Positions 8,944 to 32,000 of a stretch of DNA of 32,000 nucleotides are shown here, piece by piece. Every line of letters starts with the position of its first letter. Within the stretch, counting starts at the first letter, position 1. The stretch covers positions 2,460,001 to 2,492,000 of the forward strand of contig FP565575.1 in NCBI GenBank assembly GCA_000091165.1, given 5' to 3'. A program made the position numbers and the translations under genes. Below the pieces are notes generated by a model. The model worked only from the letters and a program-made list of their open reading frames with translations, was not told where the DNA came from and did no database searches. The stretch comes from Candidatus Methylomirabilis oxygeniifera. Its GTDB lineage: Bacteria > Methylomirabilota > Methylomirabilia > Methylomirabilales > Methylomirabilaceae.

Positions 8944-8979
8944 TAAGCGGTCAGCGATCAGCCATCAGCTTGCTGATGG
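8944..8979. repeat. Heptanucleotide tandem repeat (TCAGCNN x3-4) ending in an 8-bp palindrome
   Basis: TCAGC occurs at 8951, 8958 and 8965 (period 7), with a TAAGC variant at 8944. CCATCAGC-TT-GCTGATGG lies at 8962-8979. The repeat sits in the divergent tldD/mutY intergenic region, 19 nt upstream of the tldD ATG. Confidence 0.8.
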
Positions 8980-9032
8980 TTTATACCGGAATGTTATTGA
9001 AATCGACCGTACAACTTTTTATACTACCGCCC

Positions 9033-9749
9033 ATGCCCCTCGTCAACAATCACTTCCCGGATCCTGTCATCAGGCGAAAATTTCAACAGCGACTCCTGCG
9101 CTGGTATGCGCGTCATCGGCGCGACCTGCCGTGGCGGAAGACCTCCGACCCGTACAAAATTTTGGTATCGGAGGTGATGCTGCAGCAGACCCAGGTCGAT
9201 CGGGTCGTCCCCAAGTATCAGGAGTTCATCCGAAAATATCCCACGCTGCAAGAGTTGGCCGGCGCTTCGGTCAGTGACGTCGAGGCCTCGTGGCGGCCGC
9301 TCGGCTACAATATTCGACCGGTCCGCTTGCACGCCATCGCGCAACAGGCTGTTGACCAACACGGCGGCAAGATCCCGAGCTCATTGGAGGAGCTCCAGGC
9401 ATTCAAGGGGATTGGCCGCTACACTGCCGGCGCAGTGATGAGCTTTGCCTTCCGCAAAGATGCCCCGATCCTCGATACCAACGTGAAAAGGCTGCTGCAG
9501 CGGGTCTTTCTTGGCCCGATAAAAAGTAACGGCTCGAAGTCAGTAAAACATCTCTGGGACCTCTCGACTGTCTTGATCCCCAACGGTAAAGCGTACGACT
9601 TTAACCAGGCCATGATGGACTTCGGCGCGCTCATCTGCACCGCCCGGAAGCCCAACTGCCCAATCTGCCCCATGCGGCCGCTCTGCCGCTCCTATCCACA
9701 AGATAAGGATCACACGCCATGCCCGAAGCCGCGCCGACCGTCGAGGTAG
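9033..9749 (+). CDS. mutY: MutY-type HhH-GPD adenine DNA glycosylase, catalytic domain only, with a 4Fe-4S cluster loop
   Basis: VSEVMLQQTQV (catalytic Glu region), the HhH-GPD segment LQAFKGIGRYTAGAV...ILDTNVKRL, and the Cys ladder CTARKPNCPICPMRPLC. Only 238 aa from the ATG at 9033, so there is no C-terminal MutT-like domain. Confidence 0.75.
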   Translation: MPLVNNHFPDPVIRRKFQQRLLRWYARHRRDLPWRKTSDPYKILVSEVMLQQTQVDRVVPKYQEFIRKYPTLQELAGASVSDVEASWRPLGYNIRPVRLHAIAQQAVDQHGGKIPSSLEELQAFKGIGRYTAGAVMSFAFRKDAPILDTNVKRLLQRVFLGPIKSNGSKSVKHLWDLSTVLIPNGKAYDFNQAMMDFGALICTARKPNCPICPMRPLCRSYPQDKDHTPCPKPRRPSR

Positions 9750-11379: not shown

Positions 11380-11498
11380 CGTTCTTCCGCAATGTCAGCG
11401 CTATTATAGTCTATGCCGCGAATGGGACAAAACGGTTCTTATGCGGTGTCCTGTACCGTTCTGAGGGAAAACACGGATAGGCCAGATGGGAATGTGGG
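11380..11498 (-). promoter_or_regulatory. Repeated promoter-like module, copy A
   Basis: Minus strand reads TTGTCC-16 nt-TATAAT (-10 at 11403-11408, -35 at 11425-11430). The 51-nt core 11400-11450 matches 19434-19484 at 39/51, with two near-perfect blocks. Weaker similarity continues to about 11498. Confidence 0.5.
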
Positions 11499-11532: not shown

Positions 11533-12018
11533 TTAGGCGGCTCTGCCGGGTCGCGCCCTGGTCGCTCGTACGACCAGATCGACGTCACAGTCTAGGACAT
11601 GAAGGAGGGACAGCAGTTGGTCTATGGACTTTCGATAGTTGGTTTGATCCAGGAGGCGGTACAACTGCGCGGCAGATGTCCCCAGCCGACGGATGATCTC
11701 CCGTTTCGAAAGGGGGCTGGCCTGAACCCGCTGTTGGGCCTCGATGGTGAGCTTGTACAGGAGCGCGTCCCGCAAGTAGCCAGGGTCCTGGTTGTATTCC
11801 AGTACCTGCTCGAGGTGCACCGTCCCCTCCAGCCCAGACATGAGAATATAGGTAAACCCTTCCTGGTTCAGTTCCGGATCTACGAAAACCCGTTCAAGGG
11901 GATCCTGGACCGTAGGCTGGGGTTCGAGTTTGGCGTAGGGGAAGACCAACGTCCCAGTCGAGGTTGTGACCTCAAACACTTTCTTGCGGTTATTGCCGGC
12001 CACTGCTCGGATCTTCAT
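11533..12018 (-). CDS. Hypothetical protein with a C-terminal HTH-like segment
   Basis: 161-aa ORF. The C-terminal SKREIIRRLGTSAAQLYRLLD looks like a helix-turn-helix. The N-terminal half loosely resembles DUF2442-type small domains. No firm family call. Confidence 0.5.
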   Translation of the reverse strand: MKIRAVAGNNRKKVFEVTTSTGTLVFPYAKLEPQPTVQDPLERVFVDPELNQEGFTYILMSGLEGTVHLEQVLEYNQDPGYLRDALLYKLTIEAQQRVQASPLSKREIIRRLGTSAAQLYRLLDQTNYRKSIDQLLSLLHVLDCDVDLVVRATRARPGRAA

Positions 12019-12222: not shown

Positions 12223-13287
12223 CTATCGATGCTTCCGCCCCCCTTTTTTCAGTGTCGCCTCAATTCCGGCTCGCACCAAATCTGCAACACTTCGCGAGAG
12301 TTCCTTGGTAACCGATGTCCAAGGCGCCTGAGCATCGTCCCGTATGTTAGCGAAGGCGTTCGGCTGCGACTGGTTCCAATTGAATGCCTTTTCCAACTCC
12401 TCGATGTTTAATAGACCGTCGTTGAGGTGTACGAACAGCCGCCCTTGTCTCAGCGCATGCCGGCGCTCCATGAGGCGCTCGGATTGATCTAACATTGCGC
12501 GGCCATATCGCCAGAGAAATACTGCTAGCAGAACGATCATGCCGTATGCCGAAAACGACTTACTGAATCGAAGAAACCCCTCCCAATGGTAGTTAGCCTC
12601 TCCCATTGGGATCTTGTCTTCCACAGGCACCAAACCGAATATGTTACCGTGATGGTAGACTACTATTGGTATTGGATTCGCGCCTGGGAGAGATTCCCAA
12701 CCGAGCAGATGAGCTAGCGCTAGACCGGCGCCCAACGCGACAATGAAAATCGCTAATCGGCTCGCCCGGTAACCATTTCTTTGATGCCTGGCAGAGTGCT
12801 CCTCCAGATACGCAATCGCCTTTTCAACGAAAAGGTCTGTGACGGCTAGATGATATGCTCTCAGTGCTGGATTCAGGACACGTGGTCCCTGATCCTTACG
12901 GGCTGGTGCGGGGGTTCCGGCTGCTAAAGTTATAGGTTCTGATTGGTGCGGTTGCTTCTCATTACTAAGCGACTCGTGCGCTCCATACTCAAGCGCCTCT
13001 GCTTCAGCTCGTTTGAGTTGAACGTGTCTGAGCCTCAAACGTCTGTAGGTTTTGCGCGCTATCTCCTCGTGATGATCGGTTTGGCCTCGCGTCAACGTGC
13101 TTATAAAGCGTTTGAGCCTTAAAAGGAAATGTCTCGCTATCTCCTTGGGGGGATCAATTTGGTTACCCGCTTCTGCGCTTTGAATGAAATCGTTGGTGAT
13201 AGTTTCGATTAGTTTAGAGTATGCCTGATCAACTGTCTCTTTAGATGTCTGTTGTGCTGCTTTCGGTTCGTTAGCATTGTCGTTCAT
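12223..13287 (-). CDS. Hypothetical 2-TM membrane protein
   Basis: 354 aa, with GGAG 9 nt upstream of the ATG. Two hydrophobic helices (LAIFIVALGAGLALAHLLGW, YGMIVLLAVFLWRYG) separate a ~170-aa helical N-domain from a ~95-aa C-domain. No recognisable motif. Lies in the lower-G+C island. Confidence 0.55.
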   Translation of the reverse strand: MNDNANEPKAAQQTSKETVDQAYSKLIETITNDFIQSAEAGNQIDPPKEIARHFLLRLKRFISTLTRGQTDHHEEIARKTYRRLRLRHVQLKRAEAEALEYGAHESLSNEKQPHQSEPITLAAGTPAPARKDQGPRVLNPALRAYHLAVTDLFVEKAIAYLEEHSARHQRNGYRASRLAIFIVALGAGLALAHLLGWESLPGANPIPIVVYHHGNIFGLVPVEDKIPMGEANYHWEGFLRFSKSFSAYGMIVLLAVFLWRYGRAMLDQSERLMERRHALRQGRLFVHLNDGLLNIEELEKAFNWNQSQPNAFANIRDDAQAPWTSVTKELSRSVADLVRAGIEATLKKGGRKHR

Positions 13288-13668
13288 TGGCGGTTTCTCC
13301 AGGCTCGCCTTCCATTTGTATCTCTTGACGCCAGAAGGGTTCTATTGTGTTATCAGTATCATTTCCGCCTCACACACTGCAAGAATATTGGTGCTCCTTC
13401 CTGACATGGGGACAATCCCTCGCCTCCGGCAAAGCAAGGGGGTCGGCGACATGTGGTCGCTACAGGTAGAATGAACTACCCCGCGGACAGACCGATGGGC
13501 AAGAACACCTGGACGACCTCTGTTTGGGAAAACTAATCCTCGACCCACTGTTTACGCTTCGATGCCCAGACAGCTTGGGGAACGCTTGCACCTTACCCCT
13601 GGTTCTCCGAACGCGTTTAGAGAGGCGATGAAATCATCATAATCAGGCATGGCTACTCTACTCGATCA

Positions 13669-13980
13669 TCAGTTTGCTGCGCTCGCTGCATCATCGATAG
13701 TTGACTCGACGTCGTTGGCTGCACTTTCAATATCATCGACGGCGGCCCGTACATGGGAGACGGCAATTCTCCAATCCGCATGGTCGAATTCATCGACTGC
13801 GGACGTCAGATCATCAACCGCACCTTTTAATGTTTCCACCTCTGACTGAGCGTCACCAAGTTTTGAGCGGACGTCTTCAAGCTGGGCCTCGAGTTCGGTA
13901 GCATGGTCGTTGTCACACCCTATAAGGGGCAGCGATAAAGCGAGTATTGCAACAAGAGATGGGAACGATGGCAGCTTCAC
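13669..13980 (-). CDS. Small acidic coiled-coil lipoprotein (putative)
   Basis: GTG start. Signal peptide with lipobox LPLIGC. The rest is Asp/Glu/Ala-rich heptad-like sequence. No clear SD. Confidence 0.45.
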   Translation of the reverse strand: MKLPSFPSLVAILALSLPLIGCDNDHATELEAQLEDVRSKLGDAQSEVETLKGAVDDLTSAVDEFDHADWRIAVSHVRAAVDDIESAANDVESTIDDAASAAN

Positions 13981-14290: not shown

Positions 14291-15127
14291 TTATCGTAGC
14301 GGTCCACGTGGTTGTTCGTCATTCGGAAATGGATAGGTCGTTATCAGCAGTTCCGTTGTCTGGCATCGGTGCGAGGCTTCTGCGGCAAGCATACTAGATC
14401 GGTTGATACGATGATGAATACCAAATTCACGATATAATTCGCGGACGCTGTGGTGATCGGCATTGGAGAGCATGATCTTCGCACCTCGACTCGCCGCTCT
14501 CTTGATCGCAGAGGCGAGCCGCAACTGATCAGACCACAAGAACAACCTGTCGTTATACTTTATGAAATTATTGTTGTTATGCATAACGGTGTAGGGCGGG
14601 TCAACAAATACGAAGTCGTCCTTGCCAGCCCTGTTGATGGTGTCCTCAAAGTCTGCGGCCTGCAGCGATGCCTTACTCAAGCAGCCTGAGAGGGTTTGTA
14701 GGTATCCTTCGGGATATTCGACCAGAGTCTTGGAACCTATTGGGACATTGAAGTCGCCATTACGATTGACTCGGTAGATCCCATTAAAGCACGTCCGATT
14801 TAGATAAATGAAACGCACTGCCCGCTCCAGCGCGTTTTTTGGAAGTGTTGCGCGAATACGATAATATAACTCCTTGCTGTGTTGTTTTTGGAGCAAGTGT
14901 AGCCGTCTGTCGACCAATGCTGGATACTGTTGTAGGCACTCATATGCATTTATGAGATCAGGGTTGGTATCGGACAGAACGGCGCTGGTAGGTAAGAGAT
15001 AAAAGAACACCGCCCCTCCGCCCAGGAACGGTTCAATATAGCGGCGATAGGACGAGGGGAACATGGTGGCATGCTGTTGGACAAGCCATCTTTTGCCGCC
15101 TGGCCATTTAAGGAACGGCTCAGGCAT
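14291..15127 (-). CDS. Dam-family (D12 class, alpha group) N6-adenine DNA methyltransferase
   Basis: KWPGGKRWL N-terminal motif, AdoMet motif PFLGGGAVFF, catalytic DPPY (VFVDPPYTV). ATG at 15127 is preceded by GGAGGA and overlaps the stop of the upstream 785-aa ORF (ATGCCTGA). Confidence 0.85.
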   Translation of the reverse strand: MPEPFLKWPGGKRWLVQQHATMFPSSYRRYIEPFLGGGAVFFYLLPTSAVLSDTNPDLINAYECLQQYPALVDRRLHLLQKQHSKELYYRIRATLPKNALERAVRFIYLNRTCFNGIYRVNRNGDFNVPIGSKTLVEYPEGYLQTLSGCLSKASLQAADFEDTINRAGKDDFVFVDPPYTVMHNNNNFIKYNDRLFLWSDQLRLASAIKRAASRGAKIMLSNADHHSVRELYREFGIHHRINRSSMLAAEASHRCQTTELLITTYPFPNDEQPRGPLR

Positions 15128-17477
15128 CTTCGTCCTCCGCATCAGGGTTGGCTTCAAGAACGGGATTCTCTTGCGCTTCTTTCAGACGCGTCATCAGCTC
15201 ATCGTAAATGAAGTCTATGTACTCAAAATCCTCGACCTTGTAGTGCCGCTCTCTCGCAGGATGTGCCGGTATTCTCCGCAGTTCGTTAATCCGATTCATC
15301 CACTTGAGGTTCTTCGCAAGTCCCTTCTCACCAGGTTCTGGAATGTTGAATACCGTCTTGAAGAGAGGCCAGTTCTGGCGATTTTCCACGATCTTTTTCA
15401 TCTCAACGACTTCCAGATAGGTTTCCAGTGGAAGTCGTTCTTCGACTTCGTAGTCGAGCGAACGCTTGTATGCATCAGCCTTCAGCGCTTTATCTGGTAC
15501 TCCCTTGTCCCAGTAGGCCCCCTTATCTTCGCCATGAATAGCCCGGAAAACGTCAAAGATGAACTTCCGCATCTCGGATACGGTATCCTTGAGCTTGCTA
15601 TCTGCCTCCTGAATTCGCTCTTCTGACTGCTCCTCTTCCCACTGTTGCAAGCCCTCAGGCTGGAAGTCGGAATATTTCGTTTTGATCATTCTGCAGAGAC
15701 GGTAGTAATACTCCGGTGGTCCACCTGAGCCGAAAGGAACTTGAAAGGCTGCCTTAATCTGAGATGGTGTGCTTGATTCGAGGAAGTCCTCGATCGATTT
15801 CATGTATTCTTCGATTCCTATCATCACATCCTCGACCGTCATCTCGCGAGCATCAGCGGCCGTATTCGCTTCCCAGTACTTGACCAGCGCCCCCATGAGC
15901 ATGATGTATGCCTGGACGGCGACATTCGTGCAAAGATAACCATCCCGACCGTTTTCCCACTCGGATAGGTTTGCATTCCGAATAAATCCGAAATATTGGT
16001 TGATCGCTGAACGTGCCCGATCTAATGTCTCGGAGTCAGTGCAGCCGCAAAGAGCGCCCAGTTCGTAATTGCTATTGTTTAGAAGTGCTCGGCCAAGAAG
16101 TCCGGAACGTCGCAAAGCCTCCTTCAAAGCGGGGATTGTTAGGCAGGTCTTGTTTGTTGAAGGCATCCCTTGTTGAGTAATCCGATTGTAGAACGGTTCC
16201 CCAAGGTCCGCGTTCAAGCAGTTGATGAGGCGTGCGCTAATTGCGCCAATACGTTCGCTTGGGATCGAAGAACCCCATTTGAGCTCACCCTCGAGATCAT
16301 CGAGCAAATGTTTAGGTACGGATTTCTGCTCGTGATTGATTGTAACGAAGAGGTTGGCCTCCTCTGCCTTTGGTAGCATTTCGAATGCTACAACAATTAC
16401 ATTCTGATCAAGGTATTTGTCGTGAATAGGAGAAAACCCATATAGACGGTGCTGACCGTCGATGATCCACGCTGACCTGTATCGATCTGGTAAGTAGAGA
16501 TTTCCGAAGGTGACATTAGCGACTTCATTCTGCGTGACTTTATCAAAACGGACAGCGCGCGTGAAGTTGATGATCAGGTTATTTGGAAAGTAGCCGCCAG
16601 TTTTGATGAACTCTCCGATGTCACGCAGCCTGGAGCGGCTTACAAGGCGTTGATAGGTCGGCGCCCCTTCTGGGTCATTGAGCGATCGATGGTTGACAAA
16701 AGATATTTTCAGCAGGTGCCGCGGAGTCGTGATAAAGCAATAAAAGGGTTTACCTCCGAGCTTACCCTTGATTGCCGGGACAACCTTCCCGCTGAGTTCA
16801 GGGATTTGCTGGTCCTTCAGGAATTCAGCAAGAAACTGGTAACGGGCTGCTTTACCGAGATGATCGGCAATCTGCACGTAGTATCGGAGCTCTCGCTCCG
16901 TTATGATGCGAATGTTTTGACCAAGTGCCCGCTGTTTGTCTGGAGCTGACCAGATAATGTTTTCGGTGACAAGTAGCCAGATGATCTTCAACTTGACATC
17001 TGAACCATAGTGCTTGCGCACCGCGTTCGATATGGATCCTTTGAGATTGGCAAACTCCTCAATGTCCTTCTGCAGACTGCGCCGCGTCAGCTTCTCCGAT
17101 GCCTTGCATTCGGCAACGATAATCGTTTCATCATCTTTGCCGAAGACATCAATCTGCTTACGCAAGGGCTCCGCCCCTTTTCGCTCTATAAGTACCGAAA
17201 AGTTCCGCCCATCACTTATCTCGGGGTAGCCCAGTTTACACAGAAGCATCCATAATCTGTTTTCCAGCCTTTCGTCGATCTCCTTCTCGCGCCTGACTTT
17301 AGTGAGACGCTTGAGCTTCCGGTCAACCTGCCACCCCTTGGCCTCGTGATCGGGAATAGTGTCGGCGGATACAGATTTTTCGTCGAACAACTTTCGCCTG
17401 CGAACAGCTTCTCTACGGATACGCGAGGGATCGGTTAATAGCGGTCCAAGATAACATTCTGTAGCAGAATTGTTCAT
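15120..17477 (-). CDS. Three-module protein: Mrr-like PD-(D/E)xK nuclease + DGQHR (DndB/ParB-like) domain + C-terminal HEPN-like domain
   Basis: 785 aa. E72...D110 (QIDVFG)...E123-C-K125 (IVAECK; nt 17103-17111). DGQHR at residues 340-344 (nt 16446-16460), preceded by YQRLVS...FPNNLIINF and followed by LFVTINHEQKSV. INELRRIPAHP gives R734-x4-H739 (nt 15261-15278). Confidence 0.85.
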   Translation of the reverse strand: MNNSATECYLGPLLTDPSRIRREAVRRRKLFDEKSVSADTIPDHEAKGWQVDRKLKRLTKVRREKEIDERLENRLWMLLCKLGYPEISDGRNFSVLIERKGAEPLRKQIDVFGKDDETIIVAECKASEKLTRRSLQKDIEEFANLKGSISNAVRKHYGSDVKLKIIWLLVTENIIWSAPDKQRALGQNIRIITERELRYYVQIADHLGKAARYQFLAEFLKDQQIPELSGKVVPAIKGKLGGKPFYCFITTPRHLLKISFVNHRSLNDPEGAPTYQRLVSRSRLRDIGEFIKTGGYFPNNLIINFTRAVRFDKVTQNEVANVTFGNLYLPDRYRSAWIIDGQHRLYGFSPIHDKYLDQNVIVVAFEMLPKAEEANLFVTINHEQKSVPKHLLDDLEGELKWGSSIPSERIGAISARLINCLNADLGEPFYNRITQQGMPSTNKTCLTIPALKEALRRSGLLGRALLNNSNYELGALCGCTDSETLDRARSAINQYFGFIRNANLSEWENGRDGYLCTNVAVQAYIMLMGALVKYWEANTAADAREMTVEDVMIGIEEYMKSIEDFLESSTPSQIKAAFQVPFGSGGPPEYYYRLCRMIKTKYSDFQPEGLQQWEEEQSEERIQEADSKLKDTVSEMRKFIFDVFRAIHGEDKGAYWDKGVPDKALKADAYKRSLDYEVEERLPLETYLEVVEMKKIVENRQNWPLFKTVFNIPEPGEKGLAKNLKWMNRINELRRIPAHPARERHYKVEDFEYIDFIYDELMTRLKEAQENPVLEANPDAEDEDA

Positions 17478-17938
17478 AATATTGCGTTCCTTATTGAATC
17501 ATTAAGTATGGTGCCACTGGGGCAGCATTATACCACGATAGGGCGTTCTGAAGTCTATAAGCAACTGATGTTGCGGGATCCCTGACTTACCGCAACGCTG
17601 CAAACTACGCCCTTTACGAAATACAACGCGGACCTTGCAGTCTATTTCACTATCCCCCGCAGTTATCCAGGCTGCTACGTTACCGCCATGATCGCAGGTG
17701 ATCAGCCTAGCCGTCCACACTCTGTCCGCCACGACAGACCTCTAGCGCCGACAGGCCCGGGACTGCCATAAACAAAACGGCCCCTTGGGGCATAAAAACC
17801 TCAAAGGGCCGCGAACATACGTTCCTTTGCCCACGCTGTTTAGGTGCGATTGCCGATCCTTACCGACTTCGTTGGGCGCATCCTCTCCTTCAATGAGGTG
17901 GAGCCAGTGTGCAGCGTAATTCGAGTCCGGTCCCAGTT

Positions 17939-18703
17939 TTACCTCATCGGCGGCTGCGGGATCACATGCTTATGAGAATTGCCTGAACGCTGTGTATGAT
18001 CCCGAAACCACAGCGTGATAGGCCCGACTGACGCGGGCTTGGCATCGAAGGCTTGGGGTGACCGAACGTCAATCCAAAACTCTGTTGACCGTTCAACGGG
18101 AATCGGGAAAGGCGCTTTTCTTCCATCGGCCTCCCGAAAGATTTCATTTATGGTCCACGTCCCCACTCCCTCCTCCGTAACTCCAAGCTCGATGATGTCC
18201 AGCGGCTGACCTTCCGCGATTAATCGGACCTTGAATCGCCATCCGCTGACATAGCTCCCACCAGACGACCAATAACCAATGGGATTCACTGGCTCCGGAA
18301 GTTCAATCCGAAGCCGTCCAGGAAATCGCTCTGCCTGAGTATCAGAAATTCGGTTGGCCGTCTTGCCAATCTCCGAAAAGGCCGCCTCTTCGGCCTTGGA
18401 CTTCCATTCGCGGAGAAGGTCGGCAGAGTAGCGGAAAAAGTCATTGTCAACCAGCTTCGCGCAGGTTTGGCACAGCCAGATCCCGTTATTAGGGTGGCTA
18501 CGCTCTTCGGAACTCAATGATGAATCATATCGTGGTCCGCCAGCGGACGCAGCCGTGATGTGCGCCGCCACACCGACGTTAAGAGTCTTTGCGGAGTCCA
18601 GTTGGGGACCACTTGTCACTGCTCGGCACTCAAGATTAGAGCAGCGATTCGCAACGCGGTTAGCGATAGCCCGCTTTACGTCTTCCGTAAAATCGTCTCT
18701 CAT
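17939..18703 (-). CDS. C4-type HNH endonuclease-like protein with an unknown beta-rich C-terminal domain
   Basis: 254 aa. Contains CSNLEC...GVAAHITAASAGGPRYD...NNGIWLCQTCAKLVDND (Cys21/26/78/81, His48, Asn72/73). The C-terminal ~140 aa has no recognisable motif. Confidence 0.7.
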   Translation of the reverse strand: MRDDFTEDVKRAIANRVANRCSNLECRAVTSGPQLDSAKTLNVGVAAHITAASAGGPRYDSSLSSEERSHPNNGIWLCQTCAKLVDNDFFRYSADLLREWKSKAEEAAFSEIGKTANRISDTQAERFPGRLRIELPEPVNPIGYWSSGGSYVSGWRFKVRLIAEGQPLDIIELGVTEEGVGTWTINEIFREADGRKAPFPIPVERSTEFWIDVRSPQAFDAKPASVGPITLWFRDHTQRSGNSHKHVIPQPPMR

Positions 18704-19414: not shown

Positions 19415-19532
19415 CCGTCTAAAAATATCAGGTGCTATTATAGTCCAACCGGCAGACAGGGCAAAACGGCTCTTGTGCGGTGTCTTATGACTGCATCACG
19501 CTGAGAAATCGGTAGGATAAGAAAAATGTGAG
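19415..19532 (-). promoter_or_regulatory. Repeated promoter-like module, copy B
   Basis: Minus strand reads TTGCCC-16 nt-TATAAT (-10 at 19437-19442, -35 at 19459-19464). Homologous to 11380-11498. It points toward the decayed BrnT-like pair. Confidence 0.5.
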
Positions 19533-23268: not shown

Positions 23269-23320
23269 TTAGCCTTGCAGTGTCTGCAACTGTTCAAGCG
23301 ATGCGCTGTCCTCGCCGTCG
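23269..23320 (-). repeat. Direct repeat copy 1 (higA 3' end)
   Basis: 44/52 nt identical to 24247-24298 in the same orientation, stop codon included. Confidence 0.8.
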
Positions 23321-23652
23321 GCTTCAGTGCTTTGTGAGGCCGGGGTACCCGAATGAACCTCGCGCAGAGTCCATGGTTTGATCTTCGCCAGCGTCTTGGC
23401 AAGGGAATCCTTGGCCTTGGTTGCGTCGTAGTCCATCTGTAAGCCGATCCAGAAATCCTCGGACATGCCGAAAAACCGCGATAAACGCAGACCCGTATCG
23501 ACGGTAATGGCGCGCGTGCCGGTCACGATCTCACCGATGCGTCGTTGCGGTACGCCGATCTCCTTGGCCAGTCGATACTGCGTGATGCCTATGGGTTTTA
23601 GAAATTCTTCCAGCAGAAGTTCTCCGGGGTGGGGATAGGGGACTTTACGCAT
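23269..23652 (-). CDS. higA: HigA-type HTH antitoxin with an extended C-terminal tail
   Basis: HPGELLLEEFLKPIGITQYRLAKEIGVPQRRIGEIVTGTRAITVDTGLRLSRFFGMSEDFW is the classic HigA/VapI HTH. About 30 extra residues end in DGEDSASLEQLQTLQG. Overlaps higB by 8 nt. Confidence 0.85.
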   Translation of the reverse strand: MRKVPYPHPGELLLEEFLKPIGITQYRLAKEIGVPQRRIGEIVTGTRAITVDTGLRLSRFFGMSEDFWIGLQMDYDATKAKDSLAKTLAKIKPWTLREVHSGTPASQSTEADGEDSASLEQLQTLQG

Positions 23653-23944
23653 GATGTCTCTCCCAGTGATAGTCTACGATCTCAACGTCCTTCGGGCCTT
23701 CCGTCGTCCACACGAAGCACACACGGAACTGATCGTTAATGCGGATGCTATACTGCCCGAAGCGGTCGCCTTTCAAGGCTTCGAGCCGGTTGCCCGGCGG
23801 CACGCGCAAGTCATCGAGTCTTCCGACCCGGTTCAGTATTGCCAGCTTGCGCATGGCAACGCATTCGATGTGCGCAAACCGCTTGATACGTTTGCCGCCA
23901 AACAGGCCTTGCGTCTCAGCGCACTTGAACGACCGGATCGGCAT
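23645..23944 (-). CDS. higB: HigB-type toxin (RelE/ParE superfamily, plasmid-maintenance killer protein)
   Basis: IRSFKCAETQGLF...LNRVGRLDDLRVPPGNRLEALKGDRFGQYSIRINDQFRVCFVW...VEIVDYH matches the HigB family pattern. ATG at 23944. Confidence 0.85.
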   Translation of the reverse strand: MPIRSFKCAETQGLFGGKRIKRFAHIECVAMRKLAILNRVGRLDDLRVPPGNRLEALKGDRFGQYSIRINDQFRVCFVWTTEGPKDVEIVDYHWERHHA

Positions 23945-30872: not shown

Positions 30873-31040
30873 GACCGATTCACCTCCTTCTGTATTTACC
30901 GTAGGTCGCAAACCAGGTCACGTCAAGGGCTGTACAAAAAATGAGTCGGGTGGAGGGCATTGTACCGGTACATTGTGATGCCCAATGTATTGATGTTACG
31001 TCCTTCTTCCTGTATGTTCTTCCTGGGGAGTTAACAGCAA

Positions 31041-31402
31041 ATGGTACAGCCACTCACCATGACGGTTTCAGATACAGGGACGACCGATCTGGATGGCTTG
31101 AACGTGGCCCAGCAGGCGGCGGTCACGCACGGCGATGGCCCGTTGCTGATCATTGCGGGCGCCGGGACGGGGAAGACCACGGTGATCGCGCGCACCGGAT
31201 CGCCCACCCGATCAACAGCAGGCGAGTCCGGCCGGAGCAGGTGCTGGCGCTGACCTTTACCGAGAAGGCGGCGGCGGAGATGGAGCGGCGTGTCGACCTG
31301 CTGGTTCCGTACGGCTTCACCGATACCTGGATCTCCACCTTTCACGCCTTTGGAGACCGCGTGCTTCGGGAGCACGCCCTGGTGCTGGGGCTGAGTCCGG
31401 AC
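31041..31402 (+). pseudogene. UvrD/PcrA-type superfamily-1 helicase, N-terminal fragment with a frameshift
   Basis: LNVAQQAAVTHGDGPLLIIAGAGTGKTTVIA (Walker A) is in one frame, then HRIAHPINSRRVRPEQVLALTFTEKAAAEMERR...STFHAFG (motifs Ia/Ib) in the -1 frame. The switch is near 31191-31195. Similarity ends at about 31402, 36 nt before the convergent AbiEi stop. Confidence 0.6.
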
Positions 31403-31437
31403 CGAGGCTGCGATGTTCGTCGGTTGCCCCGCCGGAG

Positions 31438-32000
31438 TCATCCCACAGCCTCCAGATAGGGGCGGATCAGTGTCACGCGGTCCACCGGAGCGAAGCGCCA
31501 GACGGCCTCCAGGCGTTTAGGGTACATCCTCCGGTAGTCGCGCAGCGCCTCGATGGCGACGTCGATGCCGATCTTGTTGCGGAACTTGAAACAGTCCGCG
31601 ACGGTCTTGGCCGCGCTGAACACCCGTACCGTCACGCCGGAGATGCGGTGCTCCTCCACCCCTTCCAGCAACGCGGGGCCTGACAGGTAGAACAGCCGCA
31701 GGGGAGGCTGCTCCAGTCGCGGCCTCCACGCTTTGCGGTCGATCGCCATCCAGATCTCGAACGGGTTCTGCGTGGTAAGCCCGTGAAAGCGCAGTGCCAA
31801 CAGTAGGCAGAGGACGCCCACAGGCACGCGGCGCGCGACCTCTACGAGATGCTGTCGCTCCGTTACGGGGGCACCCGGGAGCCGGTAGAGACCGCGCCCC
31901 ACCCGCTCGAGCAGTCCCCTATCCAGCAACCGGCGTAGTTGTATTCTCGAGACGCCAACGCGCTCAATGTCCCGGGAGCGCGCGATCCCAACTCGCTGCA
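31438..32000 (-). CDS. AbiEi-family antitoxin / transcriptional regulator (5' end beyond the window)
   Basis: The frame is open to the window edge: ...GIARSRDIERVGVSRIQLRRLLDRGLLERVGRGLYRL is the AbiEi N-terminal wHTH pattern, followed by the C-terminal AbiEi domain. No AbiEii toxin gene lies downstream. Confidence 0.7.
   Translation of the reverse strand, partial: QRVGIARSRDIERVGVSRIQLRRLLDRGLLERVGRGLYRLPGAPVTERQHLVEVARRVPVGVLCLLLALRFHGLTTQNPFEIWMAIDRKAWRPRLEQPPLRLFYLSGPALLEGVEEHRISGVTVRVFSAAKTVADCFKFRNKIGIDVAIEALRDYRRMYPKRLEAVWRFAPVDRVTLIRPYLEAVG

Follow-up and report, generated by a model that had tools for sequence, protein, structure and literature searches.

A candidate restriction-modification-like gene pair in Candidatus Methylomirabilis oxygeniifera: a DGQHR domain protein translationally coupled to a Dam-family methyltransferase

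The stretch of DNA considered here (hereafter the window) comprises 32,000 nucleotides of contig FP565575.1 of Candidatus Methylomirabilis oxygeniifera. Between positions 14291 and 18703, it carries three open reading frames (ORFs) co-oriented on the minus strand, which encode a Dam-family adenine methyltransferase, a 785-amino-acid (785-aa) protein with a DGQHR domain, and an HNH protein (Table 1). A previous analysis made from the letters alone (the sequence-only reading) had delimited the same ORFs at the same coordinates, and had proposed that all three belong to a single methylation-linked defence module. The present account is mainly concerned with the first two genes, which together form a 3.2-kb cassette.

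The two genes of the cassette are physically interlocked. The ATG of the methyltransferase gene and the TGA of the 785-aa ORF overlap at the junction ATGCCTGA, and a Shine-Dalgarno sequence, GGAGGA, is located within the 785-aa ORF, 5 bases 5' of this ATG. The same 8-nt overlap was found again in every close homologue with called genes that we inspected, which upholds the translational coupling put forward in the sequence-only reading. That reading had also placed the locus in an island of lower G+C content, and this is equally borne out by base composition (0.49-0.53 over ~12-18 kb of the window vs 0.57-0.63 in the flanks).

Table 1. Features of the cassette and of the surrounding island (positions are those of the window)
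Feature	Positions	Strand	Basis or remark
785-aa candidate restriction/effector subunit (PD-(D/E)xK - DGQHR - HEPN fusion)	15120-17477	-	ORF
N-terminal PD-(D/E)xK nuclease domain, ~aa 65-225; E72, D110, E123-C-K125	16803-17285	-	Model, Foldseek, homologue profiles
DGQHR (DndB/DpdB-type ParB/Srx-fold) domain, aa 233-545; Q276-R277, D340-GQHR344, F377xxxN381	15843-16781	-	Profiles
C-terminal helical domain, candidate Swt1-like HEPN, R734-x4-H739	15168-15623	-	Homologue profiles
Dam-family (D12 class, DPPY) N6-adenine DNA methyltransferase, 278 aa from ATG	14291-15127	-	ORF and profiles
Translational coupling: GGAGGA 15138-15133, ATG 15127-15125, TGA 15122-15120	15120-15138	-	Sequence
254-aa C4-HNH protein, adjacent island gene outside the conserved cassette	17939-18703	-	ORF and linkage survey
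354-aa island protein, hydrophobic, possibly membrane-spanning segments	12223-13287	-	Read by eye
103-aa lipoprotein-like alanine-zipper protein	13669-13980	-	Island cargo
161-aa protein, weak HTH_37 match	11533-12018	-	Island cargo
51-nt imperfect direct repeat, right copy	11400-11450		Brackets low-G+C island
51-nt direct repeat, left copy, 78% identical	19434-19484		Promoter-like TTGCCC-16-TATAAT on minus strand

In the 785-aa protein of the window itself, profile searches detected a single domain, the DGQHR domain. The match to TIGR03187 extends over residues 235-531 and covers the full model (E-value of 1.3e-45; 156.3 bits, for a cut-off of 58.85), and the domain is also recognized by PF14072 (3.9e-12) and by the PADLOC profile of DpdB (1.6e-25). 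As no Pfam match was obtained outside of this domain in the window protein, we scanned 64 diverse members of its family (26-51% identity), which also served to assess residue conservation. Pfam DndB matches 63 of these 64 proteins. The three motifs that define the DGQHR domain, namely a QR pair, the DGQHR pentapeptide and FxxxN (PMC4619093), are invariant in all 64 (Q276-R277, D340-GQHR344 and F377xxxN381 in the window protein), and no other part of the protein is as constrained.

The homologues also provide evidence for a domain on either side. Pfam nuclease profiles match at the N-terminus, with Hjc found in 15 members, Card1_endonuc in 13 (best E-value of 8e-6) and NERD in three, and HEPN_Swt1 (PF18731) matches the C-terminal 100-150 residues of 21 members (best E-value of 1.2e-7), for example at residues 642-742 of homologue P0147. 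The corresponding motif residues are kept in 84-94% of the members (D110 in 60, E123 in 56, R734 in 57 and H739 in 54), and W726 is kept in all of them. In the C-terminal domain, the family consensus is I-R-N-x-x-x-H-P, which reads as a typical HEPN signature. An AlphaFold2 model of the 785-aa protein has a mean predicted local distance difference test (pLDDT) score of 76.6, reaching 84-93 in the N-terminal domain. When this domain was compared with the PDB using Foldseek, the best matches were the nuclease domains of Cdn1, Card1, VC1899 and AF1548, followed by McrC and Hjc (E-values of 1.6e-3 to 4e-2). Searches of PDB chains by sequence and profile yielded no relative of the 785-aa protein. 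None of the PADLOC REase_II models matched it, an indication that it has no kinship with the known Type II endonucleases. Thus, the three domains proposed in the sequence-only reading are all backed by profile matches within the family, and the motif residues located here (D110, E123-C-K125, D340-GQHR344 and R734-x4-H739) agree with its numbering. The same reading described the protein as a multi-effector, which has a basis in the motifs and is overstated as a claim of activity drawn from them.

The methyltransferase is readily classified. It matches PF02086 (2.5e-51; 175 bits, for a cut-off of 22), the Dam family model TIGR00571 (4.7e-73; 246 bits, for a cut-off of 114.85) and PADLOC MTase_II (1.8e-93), and the DPPY catalytic motif is visible in its translation. 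Its score for the E. coli Dam equivalog lies below the cut-off (145.6 vs 441). The closest solved structures are DpnM (2dpm, 6e-52) and then E. coli Dam (7e-32), and because of this resemblance the most likely target site is GATC. With regard to this target, equivalents of K9, N120, R124 and P134 are kept and R137 is replaced by S.

The 785-aa family is large, with 1,433 matches (the best 120 of which are all full length, at 69-93% identity) and 534 clusters (at 50% identity) for E-values below 1e-30. An architecture of 750-790 aa is maintained down to 27% identity, and ~420 stretches encoding a relative were found in 185,579 species-representative genomes. Gene linkage was surveyed at 80 loci from species-representative genomes of many phyla, in which the large protein is 40-84% identical to that of the window. 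A D12 methylase adjoins the large gene in ~75 of them: a Dam-family methylase is located directly downstream and on the same strand in ~72 loci and upstream in two (L060 and L074); in L076, the large gene is followed by that of a divergent D12 enzyme. In three additional loci (L071, L080 and L082), an MT-A70 methylase (PF05063, 3.7e-31) takes the place of the Dam enzyme. Only one locus, L052, has a full flank and yet no methylase. When neighbouring ORFs were clustered blindly, the large gene and the methylase gene were the only conserved genes.

A second set of 80 loci, taken from metagenomes, is more distant (28-65% identity to the plasmid member that leads the alignment, itself 30% identical). 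A D12 methylase is present in 62 of these loci, in either gene order, a radical-SAM (S-adenosylmethionine) gene occupies its place in 11, and the remaining seven are truncated or show nothing detectable. Since adjacency survives divergence down to 28% identity, changes in gene order and replacement of the methylase by non-homologous enzymes, there is strong comparative evidence of a functional partnership between the methylase and the 785-aa protein, and the pairing suggested by the sequence-only reading stands. The range of partners (D12, MT-A70 and radical-SAM) further suggests that the large protein is tied to DNA-modifying enzymes in general, as a restriction partner would be. The mirror-tree signal of co-evolution between the two proteins is modest (Pearson coefficient of 0.39). 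Two individual loci deserve mention: the large gene of L143 adjoins a gene for an Mrr_N-like protein, and that of L156 is apparently split and followed by a divergent D12-like methylase gene.

The radical-SAM protein (~540 aa) is found beside distant members of the family, at positions 7254-11394 of L085 and 7431-11654 of L086 as well as in L096, L115, L117-L120, L138, L144, L157, L176 and L177. It is usually accompanied by a GHKL HATPase_c ATPase (~520 aa) and often by a small DGQHR protein (~340 aa). Two plasmids, pNL1 of Novosphingobium aromaticivorans and one from Agrobacterium, have this arrangement in their annotation, and the module may carry out an undescribed DNA modification. In several unrelated genomes, the cassette has a separate pair of genes as neighbours, encoding a DndB-like protein (361-458 aa) and a ~195-aa protein without Pfam match (positions 5562-7541 of L001 and 11824-13501 of L003, and probably also in L015, L017, L043 and L048).

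The genes flanking the cassette vary from locus to locus, as expected of a mobile cassette. For example, it is located at the end of a Mu-like prophage tail module in L087, and in L089 it lies between a CI-type repressor gene accompanied by a Ymh-family HEPN gene and a Cap15/CD-NTase pair of a cyclic oligonucleotide-based anti-phage signalling system (CBASS). Full-length members of the large protein family occur in seven IMG/VR contigs. A phage origin was considered and rejected, as no PHROG family matches the large protein and no full-length copy is present in 50,697 isolated phage genomes, and IMG/VR holds only these seven occurrences.

The cassette was compared with known systems, beginning with those in which DGQHR proteins have been characterised. 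The 785-aa protein resembles DndB and DpdB in its DGQHR domain, with the same QR, DGQHR and FxxxN motifs, and in being encoded beside DNA-modifying enzymes; it differs from them by its restriction endonuclease (REase) domain and by an extra C-terminal domain of 240 aa. Its scores are far below the cut-offs of the DndB equivalog TIGR03233 (19.7 vs 328 bits), the DpdB equivalog NF041060 (85.3 vs 300 bits) and the 'DGQHR_dnd_1' equivalog. Neither PADLOC nor Pfam detected Dnd, Dpd or Ssp partner genes, including DpdA/TGT, in 24 other ORFs scanned in the window. Membership in a canonical Dnd, Dpd or Ssp locus is thus rejected, in agreement with the sequence-only reading, and by its profile scores the 785-aa protein is a member of the DGQHR domain family that falls in none of its characterised subfamilies. 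PD-Lambda-5 and MADS were rejected as well: the methylase gives generic matches only (2.2e-12 to PD-Lambda-5_B and 0.052 to mad8) and the 785-aa protein matches neither system.

Restriction systems offer closer parallels. As in Type II restriction-modification (R-M) systems of the DpnII type, a Dam-family D12 methylase (with DpnM as its closest structure) is encoded beside a co-expressed nuclease gene in a compact and mobile two-gene cassette, but here the partner is a 785-aa protein that carries a ParB-fold DGQHR domain and a candidate HEPN domain and is more conserved than the methylase. GmrSD, SspE and BrxU similarly combine a ParB/Srx-fold nucleotide-binding domain of the DGQ(Q/H)R type with a DNase in one restriction polypeptide (PMC4619093). 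However, they are modification-dependent Type IV enzymes, which have no cognate methylase, use HNH instead of PD-(D/E)xK and lack HEPN. Membership in the GmrSD family is rejected, since PF03235 (DUF262) gives weak matches in only two of the 64 family members and DUF1524 in none, and BrxU ranked only 26th in the Foldseek search (E-value of 1.4). Finally, the anticodon nucleases PrrC and RloC illustrate how a HEPN RNase can be attached to R-M as a second line of defence (as summarised in PMC3710099). These are linked to Type I R-M, whereas the candidate HEPN domain described here belongs to the very polypeptide of the putative restriction subunit, and an ABC-type ATPase is absent.

None of the PADLOC v2 systems and NCBIfam equivalogs names the cassette, and our literature search found no paper defining it, its partner gene, its distribution or its activity. 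In this respect, the composition appears to be unnamed, in line with the sequence-only reading. The degree of novelty implied there was overstated, as fusions of ParB/DGQHR domains to PD-(D/E)xK and HEPN domains, with a link to R-M, were catalogued computationally in 2013 (PMC3632139, PMC3710099). Those surveys list a ParB (Saro_3948)-Swt1-like HEPN fusion and COG1479-PD-(D/E)xK/HEPN fusions, which are the same kinds of domain combinations with the same R-M link (Table 1 of PMC3710099; PMC3632139), but they appear as rows of tables, with no system defined and no partner gene, distribution or experiment given. Membership of Saro_3948 in the 785-aa family was not confirmed, the Novosphingobium matches that we found being those of plasmid pNL1.

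On comparative genomic grounds, we consider that the two genes probably constitute a horizontally mobile, R-M-like defence cassette. The Dam-family methyltransferase would mark host DNA with N6-methyladenine, and the 785-aa protein would be the restriction or effector subunit, with which it may form a physical R-M complex. The DGQHR domain would probably bind DNA and a nucleotide triphosphate (NTP) and act as a switch, licensing the PD-(D/E)xK domain to cut incoming DNA that is unmodified, methylation being expected to block cleavage of host DNA. A DNA- and NTP-dependent switch is proposed because of the behaviour of related domains: a DndB-like protein binds ATP and GTP (PMC12704722), DndB is a sequence-specific DNA-binding dimer (PMC4507180), DpdB is an ATPase that partners DpdA, an enzyme of DNA modification (summarised in PMC12839542), and DUF262 is the N-terminal module of GmrSD-type restriction enzymes, ParB/DUF262-nuclease fusions being known to restrict (PMC4619093). 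As for the candidate Swt1-like HEPN domain, it may act as a built-in RNase, imposing growth arrest as well where restriction of DNA falls short, by analogy with other HEPN fusions to R-M nucleases, which have been predicted to be suicide back-ups (PMC3710099, PMC3632139). Such a cassette would presumably have an anti-phage function.

Several observations weigh against this R-M-like interpretation. In the window protein itself, Pfam recognizes neither an REase nor a HEPN domain, and across the family the lysine of the nuclease motif, K125, is kept in just 40 of the 64 members (it is T in 12 and R in six). The structure models support the N-terminal nuclease fold, as expected from the sequence-only reading, but pLDDT drops below 50 at both the DGQHR segment (residues 339-351) and the Rx4H segment (residues 737-741), so that active-site geometry cannot be judged there. 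A separate model of the C-terminal domain gave no significant Foldseek match, HEPN structures appearing at E-values of 3-5. GATC is not avoided: its observed/expected ratio is 1.01 for the window, and across the cassette-bearing loci (1.04 Mb) it is 0.96, so that its frequency is uninformative as a footprint of the target site. Several cassette neighbourhoods consist of plain housekeeping genes. Intact large genes without a methylase occur in L052, L136 and L143, which would be unusual for a lethal Type II endonuclease. Lastly, the methylase is the less conserved partner, the identities of the large protein and the methylase being 90 vs 78%, 78 vs 62% and 70 vs 54%. Methylase identity reaches a plateau at ~49%, whereas the divergence of the large protein is smooth. 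In typical Type II pairs, the opposite is seen.

Because of this higher conservation of the large protein, its promiscuous partners, the existence of orphan large genes and the lack of GATC avoidance, three other explanations retain some credit. One of them, which we regard as unlikely though deserving of real weight, is an abortive infection sensor-effector, in which detection of foreign or unmethylated DNA would be the main task of the REase-like and DGQHR domains, with the HEPN RNase as the actual effector and the methylase as a safeguard against self-activation. Tolerance of large genes devoid of a methylase and the lack of GATC avoidance would both fit, as would the better conservation of the HEPN arginine and histidine compared to the REase lysine, and HEPN domains fused to R-M nucleases have been proposed to be suicide effectors (PMC3710099). 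Conversely, D110 and E123 are kept in 88-94% of the members, arguing for a working metal site, and the HEPN domain is supported by sequence profile alone. A slightly slimmer chance is given to a complex reminiscent of Type III systems, in which the methylase would recognize the sequence and the large protein, having no specificity of its own, would slide by means of a ParB-fold NTP switch and cut. This would explain how one scaffold works with D12, MT-A70 and radical-SAM modules alike, and it would accommodate a methylase whose identity levels off beside a smoothly diverging and more conserved partner, as well as a gene overlap that favours co-expression. However, distant members differ in the order and spacing of the two genes, and some large genes have no methylase beside them.

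The DGQHR protein might also be an accessory on the modification side, regulating or assisting the methylase in the manner of DndB (the repressor of the dnd operon) or DpdB (an ATPase for base insertion), with nuclease-like domains that bind or nick DNA for access. All characterised DGQHR proteins do serve modification (PMC4507180; DpdB as summarised in PMC12839542), translation of the two genes is tightly coupled, and of the two proteins the larger is the better conserved. We nevertheless judge this accessory role to be less likely, and improbable overall, because two nuclease-type catalytic motifs are conserved, because no operator is conserved 5' of the cassette (in an alignment of 22 loci, neither an operator nor a C-box was found and only the Shine-Dalgarno site aligns), and because radical-SAM variants already possess a separate small DGQHR protein in the DpdB-like slot; moreover, Dam-family methylases require no helper. 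Finally, the system could comprise three genes, with the HNH protein as its third component, as the sequence-only reading proposed. The HNH gene is indeed co-oriented with the cassette in the same low-G+C island, and the N-terminal head of its product resembles HNH domains of defence effectors. It is however absent from all 84 other cassette loci, its homologues occupy unrelated neighbourhoods, and 461 bp of non-coding DNA separate its stop from the start of the 785-aa gene, so that co-orientation is all that ties it to the other two genes. We thus find a three-gene system very improbable, and of the linkages anticipated earlier, that of the 785-aa gene with a Dam-type methylase is retained and that with the HNH gene is withdrawn.

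The HNH protein may rather be encoded by a stand-alone effector gene. Its translation displays C21/C26/C78/C81, H48 and N72/N73. The head matches Pfam HNH_2 at only 0.065, and CBASS HNH effectors at 1e-17; only residues 1-114 of the HNH protein match PDC-M68A, at its N-terminus (1.2e-22), and PDC-M68B is not among the matches listed for the scanned ORFs of the window. The HNH gene recurs beside the cassette in the same strain only (L090 and L091), an identical protein being on record for Candidatus Methylomirabilis oxygeniifera. For P0274, one of the HNH homologues, and for P0001, which among homologues is closest to the large protein, the longest contig listed is 6,763 bp in each case, and the two may share this contig. 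In other proteins, the head (residues 1-114) is joined to different C-terminal domains (PF13676, PF18864), and full-length HNH homologues are found near giant Guanylate_cyc-AAA_16-TPR proteins on two unrelated contigs (L112 and L113).

The other genes of the island, encoding the 354-, 103- and 161-aa proteins, were likewise rejected as components of the system, as they are absent from the same 84 loci; the region 12223-13980, which the sequence-only reading had considered for inclusion, is therefore unlinked to the cassette elsewhere. The pair of 51-nt imperfect direct repeats flanks ~8 kb of low-G+C DNA, and may represent an att-like duplication or else two copies of a promoter. An integrase gene was not found in the island, and transfer RNA and Rfam scans of the window returned nothing. 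Every contig with the exact 785-aa protein, or with the exact cobalamin adenosyltransferase of the flank, repeats the island arrangement, so that no island-free 'empty site' was seen among contigs with this adenosyltransferase.

Elsewhere in the window, an AbiEi antitoxin-like ORF (PADLOC, 6e-67) lies at the edge beside a UvrD/GajB-like helicase fragment (31438-31929 on the minus strand and 30941-31459 on the plus strand), and the called genes of the identical contig L090 indicate a HigB-like toxin and HTH_3 antitoxin pair at ~23269-23944 on the minus strand. An HhH-GPD glycosylase-type protein (8970-9749, plus strand) matches the PADLOC 'Type II nicking endonuclease' (2.3e-44), and probably has a housekeeping role in repair, unrelated to defence.

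Going beyond the R-M-like interpretation of the pair, it is conceivable, as a tentative proposal, that the 785-aa family represents a class of NTP-switched R-M in which a ParB/Srx fold replaces the helicase or AAA+ motor. Such proteins would combine a DNase and an RNase in one polypeptide and would be served by at least three unrelated modification modules, namely D12, MT-A70 and the triad of radical-SAM protein, GHKL ATPase and small DGQHR protein, the last of which may install an undescribed DNA modification.

If confirmed, the R-M-like cassette would add a widespread type of restriction subunit that is now missed by defence finders, and would provide a testable function, the distinction between self and non-self DNA, for the DGQHR/DndB-type ParB domain, which is poorly understood. 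The variants with a radical-SAM gene hint at what may be a new DNA modification. In annotation, a 'DGQHR domain-containing protein' encoded beside an 'orphan' Dam methylase should be viewed as a candidate R-M pair, which would alter how such methylases are read in methylome studies.

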